Assembly: GCA_042219045.1 (NCBI GenBank)
Contig: JBDGQO010000027.1
Coordinates: forward strand, 1-15,838
Direction: 5' to 3'
DNA: 15,838 nucleotides
Source: Candidatus Bipolaricaulia bacterium
Lineage (GTDB): Bacteria; Bipolaricaulota; Bipolaricaulia; RBG-16-55-9
Below, in pieces: positions 5,792 through 15,838 of this stretch. Position 1 is the first letter of the stretch; each line of letters begins with the position of its first letter. The notes under the pieces were generated by a model. That model was not told where the DNA came from, made no database searches, and saw only the letters and a program-made list of their open reading frames with translations. The translations under genes were made by a program, and so were the position numbers.

Positions 5792-7080
5792 CCCAGCTCC
5801 TTCAGGGCTTCGTAGGCCGCGTCGACGGTCGTCTGGATGTCCTCCTCGCTGTGGGCCAGCGACGGGAACCAGGCCTCGTAGGTCGAGGGGGCGATGTAGA
5901 CGCCACGGTTGAGCAGGCCCCAGAAGAACCGGGCGAACCGCTCGGTGTCGACGTTCTGGGCGTCCGCGTAGTTCCGCACGGGCCGCTCGCTGATGAACGG
6001 CGTCAGCATCGGGCCGACGCGCTGGACGACCAGGGGCACGCCCGCGTCCTGGGCGGCTTCGCTCAGCCCGTCCGCGAGCTGTTGGGAGCGCGCTTCGAGC
6101 TCCTCGTGGACCCACGGCTCGCTCAGCTTGCGCAGCGTGGCCAACCCCGCGGCCATGGCGAGCGGGTTCCCCGACAGCGTCCCGGCCTGATACACGGGCC
6201 CCGTCGGCGCGACGTGCTCCATGACGTCGAGGCGGCCGCCGTAGGCGCCCACGGGCAGGCCGCCGCCGATGACCTTGCCGAAGCACGTCAGATCGGGCGT
6301 GACGCCGACGCGCTCCTGCGCGCCGCCGTACGCCACGCGGAACCCGGTCATGACCTCGTCGAAGACGAGCAGCGCGCCGTGCGCCTGCGTGATCTCGCGC
6401 AGCTCTTCCAGAAACCCGGGATCCGGGGGCACGAGGCCCATGTTGCCCGCGACGGGCTCGATCACCACGGCGGCGATCTCGTCCGGGAACTGCTCAAACA
6501 ACGCCCGGACGGACCCGGCGTCGTTGAACGAGGCCGTCAGCGTGTCCGCGACCGCGGCTTGGGGCACCCCGGCGGTTGCGGGGAGCCCGTGCGTGGCGAC
6601 CCCCGAGCCGGCCTCGGCCAAGAGCGCGTCCACGTGGCCGTGATAGCACCCGGCAAATTTGACGATCTTGTCTCGATTGGTGAACCCTCGGGCCAATCGG
6701 ACCGCGCTCATCGCCGCCTCCGTGCCGGAGTTGACGAACCGGACCATCTCGACGGACGGAAGCGCCTCGATCACGGTCTGGGCGAGCTCGCTCTCCATCG
6801 CGGTCGGCGTCCCGAAGCTCGTCCCCTTGGCCGCGGCGTCCTGGACGGCCTGGACGACGTCCGGATGGGCGTGGCCCAAAATCATGGGGCCGAACGAGCC
6901 GACGTAGTCGAGGTACGCGTTGCCGTCGACGTCCCAGATCCGCGCGCCCTCGGCGGAATCGACGAACACGGGCGCGCCGCCCACGCCGGCGAACGCGCGC
7001 GCGGGGCTGTCGACGCCGCCGGGGATCAGGCTCTGCGCCTCGTCGTAGTGCGCCTCGGAGCGGGTGTAGACGCGGGTCAC
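5788..7080 (-). CDS. hemL: Glutamate-1-semialdehyde 2,1-aminomutase (430 aa)
   Basis: [51 protein letters not shown] (PLP lysine), [13 protein letters not shown] 7080 with GAGGTG RBS overlaps the radical SAM stop (GTGA). Confidence 0.95.
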
Positions 7081-8246
7081 GTCACCACCTCGCCGCCGCG
7101 GGGCTGGTAGGGACAGAGCGGGTCGGCCGCGAGCGGGTCGCCCGTCGCGGCGAACGCCCGCGCGCGCGAGCCGCCGCAGATATAGCGATACTCGCACTCG
7201 CCGCAGTCGCCCCCGAACCGATCCGGGTCGCGCAGGTCGTTGAACAGCTGGCTGTCGCGATAGATCTCGACGGGGCTCGTCTGGCGCACGTTGCCGGCCG
7301 AATAGGGCAGGAAGCCGGTCGGATAGACGTCGCCCGTGTGGGAGACGAACATGATCCCGTTGCCGTCGCGTATGCCGAAGCCGTGGCCCACGGAGGTCCG
7401 CTTGATCTCCTCGGGGCTGAGCCCCTCCAGCCGCATGCGCTGATACGCCACGCGGCGGTAGCTCATCGCCTCGGTCGTCTTAATGGCAAATGGCGACTCC
7501 TGGGATTTGTCATAGACCCAGTGGAACAGCCGCTCCGCTTGGGCGTCCGTGATGGGCTTGAGGACCTTGCCGCGGCCGACCTGTACGAGGAAGAACAGGC
7601 TCCAGCGCGAGACGTCCAGCTCGCGCATCAGCTCGTGGATGTTGCCCAGATCGGGCAACGTGTCGGCAGTGACGAGCGTGTTCACCTGCAAGGGGAACCC
7701 CATCCCGCGGATCTCGCGCGCGGCCCAGACGGTCTGATCGAACGTGCCCTCGACGCCGCGGAAGTCGTCGTGCCACTCCGCGTCCGAGCCGTCGATGCTG
7801 AGCGAGAAGCCGTGGACGCCCAAATCCCGCAGCTTGCGCAGCTTTTCGCGCGTGAGTCGATTGGTGGCGCTCGGCGCAATCGAGAGCGGAAAGCCGCGGT
7901 CAAGCGCGGCCTCCACCAATTGGAATAGATCCTGGCGGTGCATGACGTCGCCGCCGGTCATCACCAGGTGCGGCGGCGGGTCGCCGAACGTTTTCAACTC
8001 GTCGAGCAGCGCCAGGCCCTCGTCGGTGCTGAGTTGGTACGGATGCGGCTCGCGCTGCGCTTCGGCGCGGCAGTGCTGACAGGCCAGGTCGCACGCGAGC
8101 GTCGTCTCCCAGTAGATGAGGATGGGGCGCTCGTCGAAGACGCGCGTCCCGTCCATGCCGGGATGGAACGCCGTCGTTGGCCGAGGGCCGGCTCTGTGGA
8201 TCTGTGCTTGCGACTCGGTCTCCGGAGTCATTTCTGAGGTGCGCAT
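7077..8246 (-). CDS. Radical SAM/SPASM protein, AhbD/NirJ-like (resembles the TIGR04053 family); candidate coproheme decarboxylase
   Basis: [19 protein letters not shown] (Cx3Cx2C), [68 protein letters not shown] before ATG 8246. Embedded in the hem operon. Confidence 0.8.
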
Positions 8247-8250
8247 CGTG

Positions 8251-9246
8251 TCAGCTCCTTTCGCGCAGCGCCCGGGCGGCGTCCTTGGCGAAGTACGTCA
8301 AGATCATGTCGGATCCGGCTCGTCGCATCGCGGTCAACGCCTCCAGCACGGCCGCCGTCTCGTCGATCCAGCCGCGCTCGGCGGTCGCCTTGATCATCGA
8401 ATACTCGCCGCTCACGTTGTAGGCAGCGACCGGCACATTGGAGACCTCGCTGGCTGCGTGGATGACGTCGAGATACGCCAGCGCCGGCTTGACCATGACC
8501 ATGTCGGCCCCTTCGTCGAGGTCCAGCTCGATCTCGCGCACGGCCTCGCGGACGTTGGGCGGGTCCATCTGATAGCCGCGCCGGTCGCCGGCCGCGGGCG
8601 CGGACTCCGCCGCGTCGCGGAACGGGCCGTAGAACGCCGAGGCGTACTTGGCGGCGTAGCTCATGATGGCCGCGTTGGCCAAGCCAGTGCCGTCAAGCGC
8701 CTCGCGGATCGCTTCGACTTGGTGGTCCATCATGGCGCTCGGCGCGAGGACGTCGGCGCCCGCGTCGGCATGCGAGACGGCCATGCGGGCCAATAGCTCC
8801 AGGGACGCGTCGTTGTCGATTTCTCCATCCTCGCGGAGCACCCCGCAATGGCCGTGCGGCGTGTAGCCGCAGACGCAGACGTCGGTCATGACGACGAGCT
8901 CGGGGGCTTTCGCCTTCAGCTCGCGGATGGCCCGCTGGACGATGCCGCCGTCGTCGTAGGCCGACGAGGCCTCGTCGTCCTTGCGATCGGGCAACCCGAA
9001 GAGCAGGATCGCCGGAATTCCCAGATCGAGCAGCTCGTCCGCGACGCCGGCCAACTCGTCGATCGACAGGCGCGACTGGCCCGGCATCGACGGGATCGGC
9101 TCGCCCTCGCCCTCCTGGACGAAGACGGGATAGATCAAGTCGGACGGCGACAGTTCGGTCTCGCGCGCCAGGCGGCGCAGGCCGGGCATGCGGCGCAGGC
9201 GCCGCGGCCGCGTCTCAAACGCGCGCCTGGTCCTGATCTCGTGCAC
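8251..9246 (-). CDS. hemB: Porphobilinogen synthase (ALA dehydratase), Zn-binding type
   Basis: [68 protein letters not shown] start behind a GGAGGTG RBS. 32-nt overlap with the hemD 3' end. Confidence 0.95.
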
Positions 9247-10015
9247 TCGGGGTCACCTCCCGCAGGATCGCATCGGTCAAACCGTCAATCGTGTGCACCT
9301 CGGCCACGATGTCGACATCGACGCCCAGCTCCCGAACGACCTCGGCCGTGATCGGGCCGATGCACGCCACAGTCACGCCATCCAACCGCGAGCGCTCGGC
9401 GCCGAGCGCCTCGATGAACGCCCGCGCCGTCGAGCCGCTCGTGAACGTGGCGACGTCGATGCCGCCGTCGAATAACTCGTCAATATCGTCCGCGCCCAGC
9501 GAGCGATGCTCGGTCCGGTAGGCCGTGACCTCCTCGACCCGAGCGCCACGCTCGGCCAGCTGGTGCCGCAGGTCCTCGCGGGCGATGTCGGCCCGCAGCA
9601 ACAGAAACGACGCCCCCGCAACGTCGGCAAGCTCGTCGGAAATGGCGTCGGCAATAAATCGCGACGGGACGAAATCCGGCTCCACGCTGTGAGATCGCAG
9701 CGCTCGGGCGGTGGACGGCCCAATGACGGCGATCTGCGCGTTCGTCAGCTCCGCGCTCGAGCCCCCGAGCGCCTCCAGGCGCTCCATCGTGAACCGCACG
9801 CCGGCCGGACTCGTGAAGACGATCCAGTCGTAGCTCGACAGGCGCCCGAGCGCCCCGTCCATCTCGGCCCAGTCGGCCGGCGGCACCAGCGCGATCGTCG
9901 GCCGGATCACGGGCTCGGCGCCCAGGGACGCCAACTTCCGCGCAAAAACCTCGGCCCGCTCACGCGGGCGGGTCACCAGAACGCGGCGTCCCTCCAGAGG
10001 GGGTTCCCGAGTCAT
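9215..10015 (-). CDS. hemD: Uroporphyrinogen III synthase (266 aa)
   Basis: [52 protein letters not shown] 10015 overlaps the hemA-hemC stop (ATGA). Confidence 0.92.
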
Positions 10016-12357
10016 TGGAGGGCCTCCTTCAGGATCTCGTCCGCGCCGGCGTTCCAGAGCGTCGTGCCGAGGTGCCAGCCGATCTGGGGCGCGTGGTCCG
10101 GATGGCCTTCGATCGCGTCGCGCAGCACCGTCTGGCCGTCGAGGCTGGCGACCAGCCCGGTCACCACCAGCTTCCCGTCCGCGATGCGGCCGTACGCCGC
10201 AATCGGCATGCGGCAGCCGCCGCCCAGTGCGGCCAGACACGACCGCTCGGCCACGACCGCCGCGTGCGTCGTGGGATCGTCGATGGCGCCGAGGATCTCC
10301 TGCACGGCCTCGTCGTCCGCGCGCGCCTCCAGGGCCAGCGCGCCCTGGGCGGGCGCGGGCAGCACCTGCGTCGGGTCGAGGAACTGGCTGACAACGTCCA
10401 GCCGATCGAGGCGTGCCAGGCCGGCCGCCGCCAGCACGATCGCGTCGACGACGCCGTCTGTCAGCTTCTGGAGCCGGGTGTCGACGTTGCCCTGGATGAA
10501 CGTCGTCGCCAAGTCGGGACGTCGGGCCAACAGCTGGGCCGCCCGGCGCGGGCTCCCCGTCCCGACCGTCGCGCCGGAGGGCAAGCCGTCCAGCGTCGTG
10601 CCGTCGCGGGTGATGAGCACGTCGCGCGGGTCGGCCCGCTCGGGCACCGCCACGATGCGCAGATCCGCCGGCGTCTCCGTCGGGAGGTCCTTGTGGCTGT
10701 GGACGGCCACGTCGATCTCGCCGTCGTCGAGCGCCCGTTGGAGCTCCGTCACGAACGCGCCCACGTCGCCGACCTGGCCCCGATCGCCGCGGGTCTTGAC
10801 GATCTCGGTCTTGGGGGCGAGGCCCGGGTGGCGCGCCCGCAACGCGGCAATGACGTGGTTCGTCTGCGTCCGGGCAAGCGTGCTGCCGCGCGTGCCGAGC
10901 ACGAGCTCGCGCTTGGGGCCGCCGTCGGAGCGCGCACGAGAGAGACCATCGGGGGATGCGTCCGTCTGGGACGGGCCGTCGACGTCGTTCAGTTCGGCCA
11001 TCTCCGCCTGCAGCGACGGGTCGAAGTGCGGGTGGTCGACGTCGTCCAGCTCGAAGAGCTCCCGGGCGACCGTGAACGGCTCGCACGTCTCGGAGCGCTC
11101 CGCCAGCGCCTTCAGCTGGACCGTCGGCGTGTGGAGCCACTTGTTCATCATGCGGTGCGTGAGCGCCTGCAGCGTCTCCTCCTGGTCCTCGCTGAGCGGG
11201 CCGAGCTTGGAACGGGCCCACGCGAGCTCGTGCTGGCGAATCTCCTCGGCTTGATGGCGCAGCGACTTGATGAGCGGGATCGCCCGACGCTGGCGCAACC
11301 AGCTCATGAACGCCTCGGTCTCCTCCTCGACGATCCGCTCGGCGTCGGGAACGGCCGAGGCGCGCTTCTGCTGGCTGGCGTCCTTGACGGCCTTCAGGTC
11401 ATCCAGGTCGTGGATGTGAGCGTTCGGCACGTCGCGGATCTGGGGATCCAGCGTGCGCGGCACGGCCAGGTCGACGAGCAGGAGCGGGCGGCCGCGGCGC
11501 TCGTTCATAACCGCCTCGACTTGCTCCGAGGTGACGACGTAGTCCTTGCCCGGCGCGGTGGCGCTGATCAGGACGTCGGTGGTGGAGAGAACGTCCGGCA
11601 GCTCGTCCGCGCCCGTGGCTTGGCCGCCGAACTCCGCGGCCAGCTCCGTCGCTCGCTCGCGGGAGCGACTGGCGATCCGAACGTCGCGCATGCCGTTTTT
11701 GTGGAGCTGGCGGGCGACGAGCTCGCCCATCTCGCCGGTGCCCAACAGCATCGCCGAGGCCTGGCCGAAGTCGGGATGGATCTGCGCGGCGAGATCGACG
11801 GCCACGGAGCCGAGCGACGCCGGATGGCGCCCCAGGTCGGTCTCGGTGCGGACGCGCTTGCCCACCTGGATGGCCCGCCGGAAGAACGTGTCGAACAGGG
11901 GCCCGAGCGCGTCGGCGTCCCGAGACCGGTCGTAGGCGTCGCGGATCTGGCCCAGGATCTGGGGCTCCCCCAAAACTTGGGACTCCAAGCCGGCGGCCGT
12001 GGCAAACAGATGCCGCACCGCCTCCCGATTCTCGTAGACGTTCAGGTGGCGCCGCAGTTGGGCCGGGACCGACCCCTGTCGGCCCGCGAGAAAGCGCGCC
12101 AGCGGTTCGGCACAGCCGCCCACCGCGTAGAGCCCGGTCCGGTTGCACGTGGAGAGGATCGCGGCTTCGCCGAATTGGGCGCGCGAACAGCGATCGCAGT
12201 CCTCGTCGCATCCCAGGTGCAGAATGGGGATCGTGGCGAGGCCGTGCCCCTGGAGGAGCTGGCCGAGCGTATCGGGGATGTCATGGGCGTCAAGGCTCAG
12301 CTGTTCGCGCAGCTTCAGCGGCGCGGCCTTGTGGTCGATCTCCACGCTCACGATCAT
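10012..12357 (-). CDS. hemA-hemC: Fused glutamyl-tRNA reductase (HemA, about 11047-12357) and hydroxymethylbilane synthase (HemC, about 10012-10914); 781 aa
   Basis: HemA: HKAAPLKLRE, LSTCNRT, GLESQVLGEPQILGQ, GTGEMG, DLAVPR, DLDDL, NKWLHTPT. HemC: LGTRGSTLARTQ, DVAVHSHKDLP, VGTGSPRR, GNVDTRL, PAPAQGALALE, GGCRMPI. One uninterrupted frame; AAGGAG RBS before ATG 12357. Confidence 0.92.
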   Translation of the reverse strand: MIVSVEIDHKAAPLKLREQLSLDAHDIPDTLGQLLQGHGLATIPILHLGCDEDCDRCSRAQFGEAAILSTCNRTGLYAVGGCAEPLARFLAGRQGSVPAQLRRHLNVYENREAVRHLFATAAGLESQVLGEPQILGQIRDAYDRSRDADALGPLFDTFFRRAIQVGKRVRTETDLGRHPASLGSVAVDLAAQIHPDFGQASAMLLGTGEMGELVARQLHKNGMRDVRIASRSRERATELAAEFGGQATGADELPDVLSTTDVLISATAPGKDYVVTSEQVEAVMNERRGRPLLLVDLAVPRTLDPQIRDVPNAHIHDLDDLKAVKDASQQKRASAVPDAERIVEEETEAFMSWLRQRRAIPLIKSLRHQAEEIRQHELAWARSKLGPLSEDQEETLQALTHRMMNKWLHTPTVQLKALAERSETCEPFTVARELFELDDVDHPHFDPSLQAEMAELNDVDGPSQTDASPDGLSRARSDGGPKRELVLGTRGSTLARTQTNHVIAALRARHPGLAPKTEIVKTRGDRGQVGDVGAFVTELQRALDDGEIDVAVHSHKDLPTETPADLRIVAVPERADPRDVLITRDGTTLDGLPSGATVGTGSPRRAAQLLARRPDLATTFIQGNVDTRLQKLTDGVVDAIVLAAAGLARLDRLDVVSQFLDPTQVLPAPAQGALALEARADDEAVQEILGAIDDPTTHAAVVAERSCLAALGGGCRMPIAAYGRIADGKLVVTGLVASLDGQTVLRDAIEGHPDHAPQIGWHLGTTLWNAGADEILKEALQ

Positions 12358-12379
12358 CCGGTCTCGCTCCTTTCCGCGG

Positions 12380-12436
12380 TTCGACTGTCCGGTCGGATTT
12401 CGACCCAAAAATTGAATTCCGACCTTACGGTCTAAA
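12380..12436. promoter_or_regulatory. Two pseudo-palindromic GAC-N6-GTC operator sites in the hemA-hemC leader (putative TetR operators)
   Basis: TTCGACTGTCCGGTCGGA (12380-12397) and TTCCGACCTTACGGTCTA (12417-12434). Related sites at 13167-13185 and 13334-13351. Confidence 0.6.
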
Positions 12437-12603: not shown

Positions 12604-13155
12604 TCAGTTCGCGTGGCAGGACGTGCAGAACTCGGCCTTCTGGCCTTCGGTGTCCTGAGCGCTCGGGTGTTGGGCGACGACGCCGAGGTTGTGGCAGCGG
12701 GCACAGAAGCTGGCCGGTTCGTCCCCGTCGAGCGGCACCTCGCCCGCGGTGTGGCAGGTGGCGCAGAACTGGCCGCCTTGTTGGCCCTGAGTGACGTTGT
12801 GGGTTGCGGTCTTGCCGTTGTGTTGTAGCCGATGGCACTCCGCGCAGTCACTGGAGGTCCAATCCATGTCGATCGTGTGCGGCGGGTCCGGTGCGGGCTT
12901 CACCACGGGTTGATTCGCGGCAAACCGGACGTGCAAGTTGACGTGACAGCTGTTGCAGAACGAGGTCTGGTCCTGAGGCGGCTGCTCCATGGACTGGTGG
13001 CATTGCCAACAGGTTGCGGCATCGCGATTCGGGTCCACCGGCACGGGGTGGTTATCCGGCACGGGCGGCGGGGATTGCGCAATCGCGACGATGGTCAAAC
13101 CGGCGATCGCGAGCAGGGCCATGGTTGCGAGGACGAGCTTCTTGCGTTTCACCAT
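12604..13155 (-). CDS. Exported six-heme c-type cytochrome (183 aa)
   Basis: Six CXXCH motifs (CWQCH, CNSCH, CAECH, CATCH, CARCH, CTSCH). Sec-type signal MVKRKKLVLATMALLAIAGLTIVAIA-Q. AGGAGG RBS 5 nt before ATG 13155. Confidence 0.9.
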   Translation of the reverse strand: MVKRKKLVLATMALLAIAGLTIVAIAQSPPPVPDNHPVPVDPNRDAATCWQCHQSMEQPPQDQTSFCNSCHVNLHVRFAANQPVVKPAPDPPHTIDMDWTSSDCAECHRLQHNGKTATHNVTQGQQGGQFCATCHTAGEVPLDGDEPASFCARCHNLGVVAQHPSAQDTEGQKAEFCTSCHAN

Positions 13156-13166
13156 CGTCACCTCCT

Positions 13167-13372: not shown

Positions 13373-13981
13373 ATGGGAGTCTCCGAACGACGCGAACAAG
13401 AGCGCCACGAGCGCACCCAGCGTATCCTGGAGGCCGCGCTGCGGGTCTTCGCCCGCGAGGGCCTGCGCCCGGCGACGATCGAAGCCATTGCGGGCGAGGC
13501 CCAGCTCGGCAAGGGGACGATCTACTACTACTTCTCCTCCAAGGAAGCGCTTCTGGAGGAACTGGTCGCCAACCTCTCCGACGAATACTTCCGCGGGCTC
13601 CTGGCCGGCGCGTCCGGGCATGCGACGCCCCTGGCCATCGCACAGGGCATCGTCGAGCGGCTCATCGAGCACTATCGCGGGAAACCCGAGCTGTTCCGCG
13701 TCATCCACATGGTGTTGGGCGAGCCCGAGCCCCGTCCGCAGAAGGCGCTGGAGGCGTTTGTCGACTCCCACCTGAGCTGGATCGAGAACCTCAAAGACGA
13801 GACGGCCGAGGTGCTCCAGGCTCACGGCGTTCCCGAGGACGCCTTCCTCTATCTCGTCAGCACGTTCAGCCACGGCGTGCTCTTCGAGGCCGTGTCGGGG
13901 CGCGACCCCGATCGGCTGCTGAATGAAACCCGTGTGGCGCTGGAGGCGTTTCTGGCGTCTTTTTCGGGAACAACGTCGTAG
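13373..13981 (+). CDS. TetR/AcrR family transcriptional regulator (202 aa)
   Basis: N-terminal HTH: ILEAALRVFAREG..ATIEAIAGEAQLGKGTIYYYFSSKEAL. Divergent from the cytochrome/hem genes. Confidence 0.92.
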   Translation: MGVSERREQERHERTQRILEAALRVFAREGLRPATIEAIAGEAQLGKGTIYYYFSSKEALLEELVANLSDEYFRGLLAGASGHATPLAIAQGIVERLIEHYRGKPELFRVIHMVLGEPEPRPQKALEAFVDSHLSWIENLKDETAEVLQAHGVPEDAFLYLVSTFSHGVLFEAVSGRDPDRLLNETRVALEAFLASFSGTTS

Positions 13982-14059: not shown

Positions 14060-15838
14060 TTATGGCAGCTCCCCCAGCTCCGCTAAGACGTTCGCGCGCC
14101 GCTCTTCCACGTCCGCCAACAGTTGCTGGAACCGCGCCTCGCCGCGCAGCGGTTCAAGGAACGGATCATGCTCGCTCAGAAAGGGATGGTTGAGGAAGCC
14201 GCAGTCGACCGCGTGCTCCAGCCAGCGATAGGCTTGGTCCTTGTCGCCCAGGAGGGCGTAGGCGTCGGCCATCAGATGGGAGAATTGGGCATCTTGTGCT
14301 GATATGGTCATCAACTCCGGGGTCACGCAGGTCAGTGCTTCATCATTATTCCCTTCGATGACCTCCTTGAAGAAGCGTCCGAACAGGGCAAAGAAATCTT
14401 GAGACGTTTGGGTTTCATATTCGTCAAGTCTGGCCGAAGCTTCGGCAAACCGTCCGAGCGCGGCCAGCACGTAGGCTGCCGAGAAAGGAAGCCGAAAGCT
14501 TGACGCCTCACGCTCTCGGACAACCTGAAGCGCTTGCTCCCATTGCCCCTGGTAAGCGTGACAGAGTGATCTTGAGAGTATGGGACTGACATCGAGGGGA
14601 TCGATCCGCTCAAGCCGCTCACAGATCCTATTCGCTTCGGGATGACCAAGGGTGATGCTTAGCATAGCGCTAAGCCAAAAGAGTGTGTCCGGGTCATTCG
14701 GATTCTGCCGATAAGCCCGTTTCACATAGCGGGCCCCGGTGATGACGTTCCCGCGATGGACCCCTTCAATTTGTCCCATCAGGAGCAGTCCACGCTCTGC
14801 ATCTGGGTCGATGGCGAGGATTTTCTGGGCGTACGCTTCGGCGGTCTCCAGATGCCCCTCATCTTGGCGCACGCCGATGTTGTGATACTGCCAGTGGGCG
14901 TAGCCGAGGCCGGCGTACACGTGCACGTTCGGCCCCACCACCTCGAGGCTTTTCTCCAGCAGATTGAGCGCCCGATCGATTCCTTCCTCGGTGAAGCTGT
15001 TGATGTCTTGCCGGGCACGCAGATAATAATCGTAGGCTTGAACGTCGGCCATGGGCTCTTCCCCAAGGGCCTCGCTCTCGCTCTCGGTCAGCTGGACCGC
15101 CAGCTCGTCCACGATCGCCTGGCCCACGCGCTCTTGGATGGCGAAGACGTCCTCCAGCGTGCCCCGGTAGGTCTCGGCCCACAGATGGGCGTCCTGGGGC
15201 GCGTCGATGAGCTGGGCCGTGATGCGCAGGTCGTCGCCGGCCTTGCGGACCGTGCCCTCCAGGACGTAGCGGGCGCCCAGGTCGCCGGCGATCGCCGGCA
15301 TGGGCTGGTCCGTGCCCTTGAAGCGCATCGCCGAGGTGCGCGAGATGACCGTCAGCGAGTGGATCCGCGACAGCTTCATGATGATCTCCTCGGTCATGCC
15401 GTCGCTGAAGTACTCGTTGTCGCGGTCGGGACTGAGGTCGGCTAAGGGCAGCACGGCGATGGATTGATCGTCCGCTTGAGTCGGAGGGGCTTCCGCAGTT
15501 GGCGCCGGCGTCTCCGCACCGGATTGATCCTGCCACGGCATCCGGACTTGGAAGACCTCAACGGGATGCTGGATGTTCTTCAGATCATGCTCACCTTGGC
15601 TGACCAGGGCGAGGTCGAGCCGCTTGGCGACGTGATCGGCAACCTGTCGGGTCACGCAGACCCCTTCGGCCGGCGCCAAGGGCTCGATCCGCGAGGCGAT
15701 GTTGACGCCGTCGCCGAAGACGTCGTCACTTCGGTGCTCCACGTCGCCGAGGTGAATCCCGATGCGGATCCGGATCTGACGGTCATTCTCGGCGGAGAGG
15801 TTGTGGATGTGGAGCCCCTTCTGGATCTCGACCGCGCA
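14060..15838 (-). CDS. Class III adenylate/guanylate cyclase + TolB-N-like domain + TPR repeats, 5'-truncated by the window edge
   Basis: Frame is open to 15838: CAVEIQ..IRIRIGIHLGDV..DVFGDGVNIASRIE (cyclase); SIAVLPLADLS..NEYFSDGMTEEII..VISRTS..YVLEGTVRK..LRITAQLID..HLWAETY (TolB-N-like); AYDYYLRA followed by helical TPR-like repeats; DPFLEPLRGEARF C-terminus. Confidence 0.88.
   Translation of the reverse strand, partial: CAVEIQKGLHIHNLSAENDRQIRIRIGIHLGDVEHRSDDVFGDGVNIASRIEPLAPAEGVCVTRQVADHVAKRLDLALVSQGEHDLKNIQHPVEVFQVRMPWQDQSGAETPAPTAEAPPTQADDQSIAVLPLADLSPDRDNEYFSDGMTEEIIMKLSRIHSLTVISRTSAMRFKGTDQPMPAIAGDLGARYVLEGTVRKAGDDLRITAQLIDAPQDAHLWAETYRGTLEDVFAIQERVGQAIVDELAVQLTESESEALGEEPMADVQAYDYYLRARQDINSFTEEGIDRALNLLEKSLEVVGPNVHVYAGLGYAHWQYHNIGVRQDEGHLETAEAYAQKILAIDPDAERGLLLMGQIEGVHRGNVITGARYVKRAYRQNPNDPDTLFWLSAMLSITLGHPEANRICERLERIDPLDVSPILSRSLCHAYQGQWEQALQVVREREASSFRLPFSAAYVLAALGRFAEASARLDEYETQTSQDFFALFGRFFKEVIEGNNDEALTCVTPELMTISAQDAQFSHLMADAYALLGDKDQAYRWLEHAVDCGFLNHPFLSEHDPFLEPLRGEARFQQLLADVEERRANVLAELGELP

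Follow-up and report, generated by a model that had tools for sequence, protein, structure and literature searches.

A putative four-cysteine metal-binding insertion in the glutamyl-tRNA reductase part of a HemA-HemC fusion protein from Candidatus Bipolaricaulia

Background

The stretch of DNA analysed here (the window, 15,838 nucleotides) comprises positions 1 to 15,838 of contig JBDGQO010000027.1 in assembly GCA_042219045.1 of a Candidatus Bipolaricaulia bacterium. One of its genes, hemA-hemC, encodes a fusion protein (P0001) that joins steps 1 and 4 of the tetrapyrrole pathway, glutamyl-tRNA reductase (GluTR, HemA) and hydroxymethylbilane synthase (HemC). The N-terminal catalytic domain of the GluTR part contains a lineage-specific insertion of about 23 residues with three cysteines (C50, C54 and C57), and a further cysteine, C82, follows the catalytic C71. 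The sequences of relatives and the predicted structure lead us to propose that this insertion is probably a four-cysteine metal-binding site, grafted onto the catalytic domain of a GluTR that is in other respects ordinary and active.

In most bacteria, archaea and plants, GluTR catalyzes the rate-limiting and most heavily regulated step of tetrapyrrole synthesis, and its known controls include haem feedback, proteolysis and the partner proteins FLU, GBP and HemX. Two publications likewise place the control point of the pathway at this enzyme (PMC4726326, PMC13564367). If the proposed site held an iron-sulfur (Fe-S) cluster, it would provide a direct post-translational link between the iron or redox state of the cell and the synthesis of 5-aminolevulinate (ALA); if it held zinc, it would illustrate how a tRNA-dependent enzyme can acquire a metal knuckle with a structural role. 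The prediction is sharp either way, since it names four residues and one loop. Judged by its sequence, the protein is a known enzyme in a rare variant form, seen in a single uncultured order only.

Conserved cysteines in an inserted loop

A sequence-only reading of this DNA had placed the catalytic cysteine of HemA at residue 71, behind an insert of roughly 20 residues with cysteines at positions 50, 54 and 57, and had recorded another cysteine at position 82. All five positions are exact, each codon having been checked in the DNA, and alignment sets the length of the insert at about 23 residues. Out of 268 GluTR-like proteins collected, 254 allowed a script to measure the spacing between the motif H..AP...RE and the catalytic cysteine; P0001 has 52, against a mode of 30 (154/254), and values of at least 49 occur only in P0001-P0023 (23/254). 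Another nine of the 254 proteins (spacing 41-44; e.g., P0025, P0035 and P0078) carry about 11-14 inserted residues at this site, none of them cysteine. The insertion can also be traced in profile alignments: the 151 positions of the GlutR_N profile are stretched across 169 residues of P0001 (5-173), the TIGR01035 alignment begins only at residue 60 (profile position 37), and the HMMER alignments to solved GluTRs begin at residue 67 (1gpj) or 55 (4n7r).

P0001 has eight cysteines in 781 residues, five of which lie within residues 50-82. The chance of at least five of eight cysteines falling within a 33-residue window was 0.00054 in 100,000 random placements, and the chance of a CX3CX2C arising was 0.00048 in 100,000 random placements of eight cysteines; the clustering is beyond chance (p ~5e-4). 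At the position of C82, cysteine is absent from the canonical GluTRs aligned.

Relatives were taken from the best 120 of 1863 matches (E<=0.001, 5277 candidates) in a word-based search with residues 1-200. The insertion is present in every one of 20 of these proteins (P0002-P0021), which together with P0001 form the type-1 set (n=21, 51-96% identity); P0014 (56% identity) is recorded as Candidatus Bipolaricaulia by its source. Among the 15 sequences whose N-termini align cleanly, C50, C54, C57, C71 and C82 are invariant (15/15). All 21 have at least three cysteines in the loop, the last two always as CxxC, and a cysteine 11 residues after the catalytic one, within the motif GGC[AP]EPLARFL that is specific to the clade. 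The persistence of the cysteines in insert-bearing homologues had been named by the sequence-only reading as a check on its idea, and it holds for the three insert cysteines and for C82 alike. Four conserved cysteines, which is what a Cys4 Fe-S site calls for at the level of sequence, were found.

The rest of the loop is far less constant. The first of its cysteines stands at variable spacing, x3 in 8/21 sequences, x4 in 7/21 (one with an extra distant cysteine) and x6 in 2/21, while the remaining four sequences have four loop cysteines (x3, x5 or x7, x2). At the non-cysteine positions between 49 and 56, the commonest residue is common to merely 4-9 of the 21 proteins. The two histidines of the insert, singled out earlier as notable residues, lose that standing: arginine is the commonest residue at position 38 (10/21), and H47 is retained in 6/21. 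Histidine ligands were rejected on this ground.

A second form of the insertion (type 2) was found in P0022, P0023 and the tandem-paralogue L014 open reading frame of genome G011. It is a different cysteine-rich sequence at the same site, W-C-x6/9-C-x3/4-C-x2-C, with a further cysteine five residues before the catalytic one and without an equivalent of C82. Outside the active site, type 2 therefore still has four or more candidate ligands, though at other positions, as a four-ligand site would predict; the lack of C82, balanced by a fourth cysteine in the loop, fits such a site as a swap of ligands. A dedicated search for further type-2 proteins returned only P0022 and P0023 at E<=1e-15. In G011, two type-2 GluTR genes (loci L006 and L014, contig 40) lie about 1 kb apart.

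One cysteine-rich protein stands outside both types: P0226 is a GluTR of canonical length, with its catalytic cysteine at position 50 and no insertion, that has four cysteines in the preceding 17 residues (M-C-G-C-V-S-E-C-C).

Predicted structure of the catalytic domain

The AlphaFold2 model of residues 1-445, built with 101 sequences, has a pLDDT of 90.5 and a pTM of 0.88. Its best Foldseek matches are the GluTRs of Arabidopsis and Methanopyrus kandleri (5yjl, 1gpj and 4n7r), with an E-value of 1.5e-26 for 5yjl_A, TM-scores of 0.78/0.85 for 4n7r_A and a TM-score range of 0.74-0.85 over 4n7r and 5yjl. According to DSSP, the model contains a strand at residues 2-7, a helix at 24-36, coil at 37-53, helical turns at 54-56 and 58-60, a strand at 64-69, the turn T70-C71-N72-R73, a strand at 74-79 and a helix at 84-95. 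The strand at 64-69, the four-residue turn with C71 and the strand at 74-79 recur in a second AlphaFold2 model. The first helical turn of the insertion begins at C54; C57 lies seven residues before strand 2, and C82 three residues after strand 3.

In the secondary structure of the model, C57 and C82 thus flank the end of the hairpin opposite C71. This topology suggests that C82 could reach the loop cysteines, and the length of the strands, about six residues, would put the putative site roughly 20 A from C71. The earlier description of the insert as lying just before the catalytic cysteine therefore holds along the sequence and probably does not hold in space, where the insert appears to sit at the far end of the hairpin. 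Structure prediction, which had been suggested as a further check, gave a clear GluTR fold, with the loop itself as its least confident region.

A fused and probably functional GluTR

P0001 has every sequence and fold feature of the GluTR family that was checked. The three GluTR domains of Pfam occur in order, the catalytic N-terminal domain (GlutR_N, PF05201, 5-173), the NADPH-binding domain (Shikimate_DH, PF01488, 188-324) and the dimerisation domain (GlutR_dimer, PF00745, 339-437). The match to the NCBIfam model TIGR01035 reaches 362.5 bits (cut-off 209.55), and all 15 columns that are invariant over 101 GluTRs are intact (E18, T70, C71, N72, R73, S126, G130, E131, Q137, T173, G206, G208, D296, P300 and R301). 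The C-terminal half matches Porphobil_deam (PF01379, 485-686) and Porphobil_deamC (PF03900, 700-767) in Pfam and scores 296 bits with TIGR00212 (cut-off 164); its cofactor-binding GGGC (G235 G236 G237 C238 in HemC numbering) is invariant (18/18). From these features, the product of hemA-hemC looks like an otherwise ordinary GluTR and is probably a working enzyme. Functionality is also probable because the type-1 gene is the sole GluTR found with the window query in three relatives, G020 (93% complete), G004 (85%) and G026 (84%). In the window, an AAGGAG precedes the ATG by 8 nt, as read from the DNA.

The fusion to HemC is present in 18/21 type-1 proteins, and the other three are unfused; conversely, P0047 is a HemA-HemC fusion without the insertion. 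Fusion and insertion are therefore separable, though strongly associated within one clade.

Distribution of the insertion and lifestyle of its carriers

A profile of the 15 cleanly aligned N-termini was run against 1.84 billion representative proteins (clusters of 50% identity). Only two of the 4316 matches at E<=0.001 reached E<=1e-30, P0009 and P0004, both of type 1, and the next was the type-2 protein P0023 (E 1.2e-17). Among the best 150 of the 4316 matches, 145 align in two or three stretches, with the best stretch after the insert in all but one; P0196 and P0265, the other single-stretch matches in these 150, were not flagged by a screen for cysteines and spacing. The type-1 form is rare, with two 50%-identity clusters among the 1.84 billion representatives. 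A feature search of the ESM Atlas with residues 36-92, in which GluTR families were skipped, gave no usable match.

Of 184 genomes of the phylum to which the window belongs, five carry type 1 (G000, G001, G004, G020 and G026) and one carries type 2 (G011), and all six fall in one order. Any GluTR at all was found with the window query in 11/35 genomes of that order, and in just 13/41 related genomes searched. In a quick tree, type 1 (98 SH-aLRT, including the insert-less fusion P0047 on a long branch) and type 2 (99) share one clade with support of 100, which also includes an insert-less group joined to type 1 at only 80.

G000, the genome that contains the window, and G001 each have a second, canonical GluTR (loci L016 and L015). 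The copy in G000 is 38% identical and has no cysteine insertion; the quick tree sets the canonical paralogue far from type 1, so the two did not arise by recent duplication. Genes for haem-copper oxidase subunit I are present in 4/5 type-1 genomes (G000, on contigs 89 and 50, G001, G004 and G020) and were not found in G026 (84% complete). SufBD is likewise present in 4/5 and was not found in G004 (85% complete). The oxidase and SufBD genes imply oxygen respiration and a capacity for Fe-S cluster assembly in the carriers. It seems that only part of the group makes haem and respires aerobically.

Nature of the site

The retention of every cysteine in 21/21 type-1 proteins, while the residues around them vary, makes a grafted metal site the best reading of the insertion, and we consider it likely that some metal centre occupies it. 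From the conservation pattern and the hairpin topology we infer that the four cysteines lie close in space, bind a metal and matter for stability or regulation. Three ligands would come from the inserted loop (C50, C54 and C57), and C82, shortly beyond strand 3, would be the fourth. The hairpin whose turn bears C71 would consist of strands 2 and 3, and the metal site would clamp the 23-residue loop to the far end of this hairpin. Such a site would take no part in the thioester or hydride chemistry, and the catalytic domain would need the bound metal in order to fold correctly or to be stable.

Several observations weigh against this proposal or against particular versions of it. In both models confidence is lowest in the insertion, with pLDDT block means of 70 and 66 in the model from the mixed alignment; a second fold of residues 1-180 with insert-bearing sequences only did not raise this confidence (loop block means of 77 and 62). 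Block means like these are what a metal-dependent loop should give when its metal is absent from the modelling, and they fit plain flexibility equally well. Strong acidity, as in the loop of P0001 (C-DED-C-D-R-C), is uncommon around a Cys4 centre, which is itself negatively charged. The haem-copper oxidases of the carrier genomes argue against an exposed, oxygen-labile [4Fe-4S] cluster, and the presence of just one CxxC argues against a classical zinc ribbon. Finally, all carriers belong to one order, so that conservation partly reflects shared ancestry.

As to the identity of the metal, three clustered cysteines plus one remote cysteine with a single CxxC occur more typically in Fe-S sites than in zinc knuckles. 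The single CxxC, the lone cysteine at variable spacing and the remote C82 therefore favour an Fe-S cluster, either [4Fe-4S] or [2Fe-2S], for which we put the chances somewhat short of even. Zinc, or a robust cluster, is favoured by the aerobic lifestyle and by the sole GluTR of some carriers. Under a combined reading, P0001 would represent the first Fe-S GluTR, with a cluster on C50, C54, C57 and C82 that ties the folded, active enzyme to iron or Fe-S supply or to oxidative stress; it would have arisen in an oxygen-respiring branch of a largely haem-less phylum and would occur in two forms with rearranged ligands. Taken in its entirety this is improbable; were it true, the metal required for haem would itself act, post-translationally, as a throttle on the committed step of haem formation.

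Within the metal-site proposal, structural zinc is a rather unlikely alternative. A Zn(Cys)4 knuckle would stiffen the surface loop and may add a contact for the acceptor arm of the tRNA or for a partner protein. Four invariant cysteines, two of them in a CxxC where a helical turn begins, would suit it, and both the aerobic carriers and the role of the type-1 protein as sole GluTR in three of them fit a constitutive structural element. The sequence offers one CxxC knuckle where a zinc ribbon would be recognized by two CxxC or CPxCG-like knuckles; no knuckle-like C-P-x-C-G signature is present, and the other ligands would be single cysteines at x3-x7 and +25, an arrangement less typical of zinc ribbons.

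Also nested in the metal-site proposal, and a shade less probable than zinc, is the idea put forward by the sequence-only reading, that of an iron or redox sensor. Assembly or oxidative loss of an Fe-S cluster would then switch the activity or stability of GluTR, and ALA synthesis would track iron, Fe-S or oxygen. The site would lie far from C71 in the models, which makes direct gating of catalysis unlikely, and the carriers respire oxygen; moreover, in G020, G004 and G026, where only the type-1 GluTR was seen, it should be the housekeeping enzyme rather than an accessory sensor isoform. These points have to be set against the 3 + 1 arrangement of four invariant cysteines, the SufBD genes of four of the five carriers, the precedent of a [2Fe-2S] cluster, its role unclear, in some ferrochelatases, and the second GluTR of G000 and G001, which would permit a split into regulated and unregulated isoenzymes. 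The acceptance of GluTR as the control point of the pathway (PMC4726326, PMC13564367) adds to the appeal of a sensor. If the idea is right, the folding, the stability or the proteolysis of the catalytic domain would be the more plausible route of action.

A metal-free thiol/disulfide switch is a good deal less probable still. Reversible disulfides would inactivate or stabilise GluTR under oxidising conditions, resembling the thioredoxin-dependent control of plant GluTR, and the invariant CxxC, the life of the carriers with oxygen and the thiol-based control of tetrapyrrole enzymes described in plants (PMC3778395) are in line with this. However, four cysteines are invariant rather than two, and type 2 keeps four by moving one into the loop, which fits the counting of ligands better than the pairing of disulfides.

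Two further explanations are barely credible. Haem-regulatory Cys-Pro motifs, through which the loop would bind haem by a cysteine thiolate for end-product feedback, draw on the proline that follows the third insert cysteine in 10/21 proteins and the C82 position in 11/21, and on the haem feedback established for plant GluTR (PMC4726326); P0001 itself has C57-S and C82-A, neither of them Cys-Pro, the invariant part is the four cysteines and not proline, and the histidines are unconserved. A conserved Cys-Pro haem motif was accordingly rejected for P0001, from which the dipeptide is absent, and it is variable in relatives. A neutral insertion, in a loop between helix 1 and strand 2 that tolerates insertions and retains its cysteines merely by shared ancestry, gains from the cysteine-free insertions at the same site (9/254) and from the restriction to one order, but at about 50% identity the loop has diverged and insertions and deletions have shifted its spacing, yet every cysteine is kept in 21/21.

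Genomic context

The fusion gene lies within a haem operon, all of it on the minus strand (Table 1). The product of the radical SAM/SPASM gene between hemB and hemL scores 464.8 bits with TIGR04053, above the cut-off; its next match, AhbD, reaches 306 bits, below the cut-off of 500. With this gene in the operon and a gene of the ChdC type elsewhere in the genome, the organism may hold both an oxygen-independent and a peroxide-dependent last step of haem synthesis. The gene directly upstream of hemA-hemC encodes a cytochrome c7-like protein with six CXXCH motifs, and a similar gene is found upstream in the relative at locus L005. A TetR-family gene diverges from the cytochrome/haem operon, and one also lies directly upstream and divergent in the relative at L003; the TetR protein is a candidate transcriptional regulator of the operon. 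Rfam gave no match over the whole window. An 806-residue open frame runs antisense to hemA-hemC (10015-12435, plus strand), along with several other long overlapping frames; these are probably shadow open reading frames of a G+C-rich genome and not genes.

Table 1. Features of the hemA-hemC gene and its product, neighbouring genes in the window, and the canonical GluTR locus on contig 40 of G000
Feature	Position	Strand	Remarks
hemA-hemC fusion gene (P0001)	10015..12357	-	781 aa; ATG 12355-12357
Parts of P0001			GluTR about residues 1-437; acidic linker ~438-484 (~48 residues); hydroxymethylbilane synthase 485-767
GluTR N-terminal catalytic domain (residues 5-173)	11839..12345	-	holds the insertion; Pfam, AlphaFold2 models, Foldseek
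Lineage-specific insertion (~H38-A60, ~23 aa)	12178..12246	-	helix 1-strand 2 loop; alignment, spacing, models
Cys50 codon	12208..12210	-	proposed metal ligand 1; invariant 15/15, 21/21 allowing the shifted spacing of P0017
Cys54 codon	12196..12198	-	proposed ligand 2, first Cys of the constant CxxC; 21/21
Cys57 codon	12187..12189	-	proposed ligand 3, second Cys of the CxxC; 21/21, always 13 residues before the catalytic Cys
Cys71 codon	12145..12147	-	catalytic nucleophile in S-T-C-N-R; turn between strands 64-69 and 74-79
Cys82 codon	12112..12114	-	proposed fourth ligand, three residues past strand 3; 21/21; motif GGC[AP]EPLARFL
hemD	~9218-10015	-	
hemB	8254-9246	-	
Radical SAM/SPASM gene (TIGR04053)	7080-8246	-	related to AhbD; between hemB and hemL; matches PF04055
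hemL, hemE and a protoporphyrinogen/coproporphyrinogen-oxidase-type flavoprotein gene		-	same operon
Six-CXXCH cytochrome c7-like gene	12607-13161	-	185 aa; c7/c3 matches; N-terminal hydrophobic segment; directly upstream of hemA-hemC
TetR-family regulator gene	13373-13978	+	divergent from the cytochrome/haem operon
Open-ended open reading frame	14063-15838	-	adenylate/guanylate cyclase catalytic-domain fragment, then TPR repeats
Canonical GluTR gene (L016), G000 contig 40	1405-2784	-	460 aa; no Cys insertion; 38% identical
Chlorite-dismutase-family (ChdC/HemQ-like) gene and ferrochelatase gene beside L016, G000 contig 40	710-1405, 2-628	-	

Comparison with known systems

Neither a metal centre bound by GluTR itself nor a fusion of HemA with HemC is described in the results of the full-text searches, which did not extend to subscription papers, in the GluTR passages of a 2026 review (PMC13564367) or in the passages of PMC4726326 that were consulted. 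Canonical GluTRs (HemA/GtrR; 1GPJ from M. kandleri; 4N7R, 5CHE and 5YJL from Arabidopsis) have in common with P0001 the three domains, the S-T-C-N-R motif, the invariant residues and the fold. P0001 differs from them in the 23-residue cysteine insertion before strand 2, in C82 after strand 3, in the position of its catalytic cysteine (71 instead of about 50) and in the C-terminal fusion to HemC.

The sequence-only reading had likened the loop to the cluster motif of radical SAM enzymes, and the literal C-x3-C-x2-C is indeed present in P0001. The analogy does not survive the comparison with relatives, since the x3 spacing is kept in only 8/21, P0001 has no Radical_SAM domain and its fold is that of a plain GluTR N-terminal domain. 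Radical SAM clusters have three cysteine ligands and leave the fourth iron free for SAM, whereas type-1 GluTRs have a conserved fourth cysteine and type 2 has four cysteines in the loop. A radical-SAM-like cluster was rejected for these reasons: variable spacing, no match of P0001 to PF04055, and the fourth cysteine.

Small zinc-binding inserts are found in tRNA-handling enzymes (e.g., Escherichia coli GluRS), in several aminoacyl-tRNA synthetases and in the lids of adenylate kinases, usually with two CxxC or CxC pairs. The resemblance to P0001 lies in a small cysteine-rich insertion, probably structural, in a conserved enzyme, and GluTR also binds tRNA(Glu); the difference is that P0001 has one CxxC and two single cysteines.

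Sites with three clustered cysteines, among them one CxxC, and one remote cysteine hold the [4Fe-4S] clusters of FNR, endonuclease III/MutY and the RNA methyltransferase RumA, where the cluster is structural or regulatory and not catalytic. Their likeness to P0001 is one of pattern only, with no relation in sequence or fold; the type-1 spacing is C-x3..7-C-x2-C-x24-C.

Closest in pathway are certain ferrochelatases, which carry a lineage-limited [2Fe-2S] cluster on four cysteines, provided by a lineage-specific segment and a remote cysteine; the cluster is dispensable for the chemistry and its role is unclear. Like these enzymes, P0001, which is known from sequence, belongs to the haem pathway and has four lineage-limited cysteines; the enzyme, the fold and the step are different. 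If the site of P0001 does hold an Fe-S cluster, it would parallel, at the first step of the pathway, the unexplained [2Fe-2S] cluster of the ferrochelatases at its other end.

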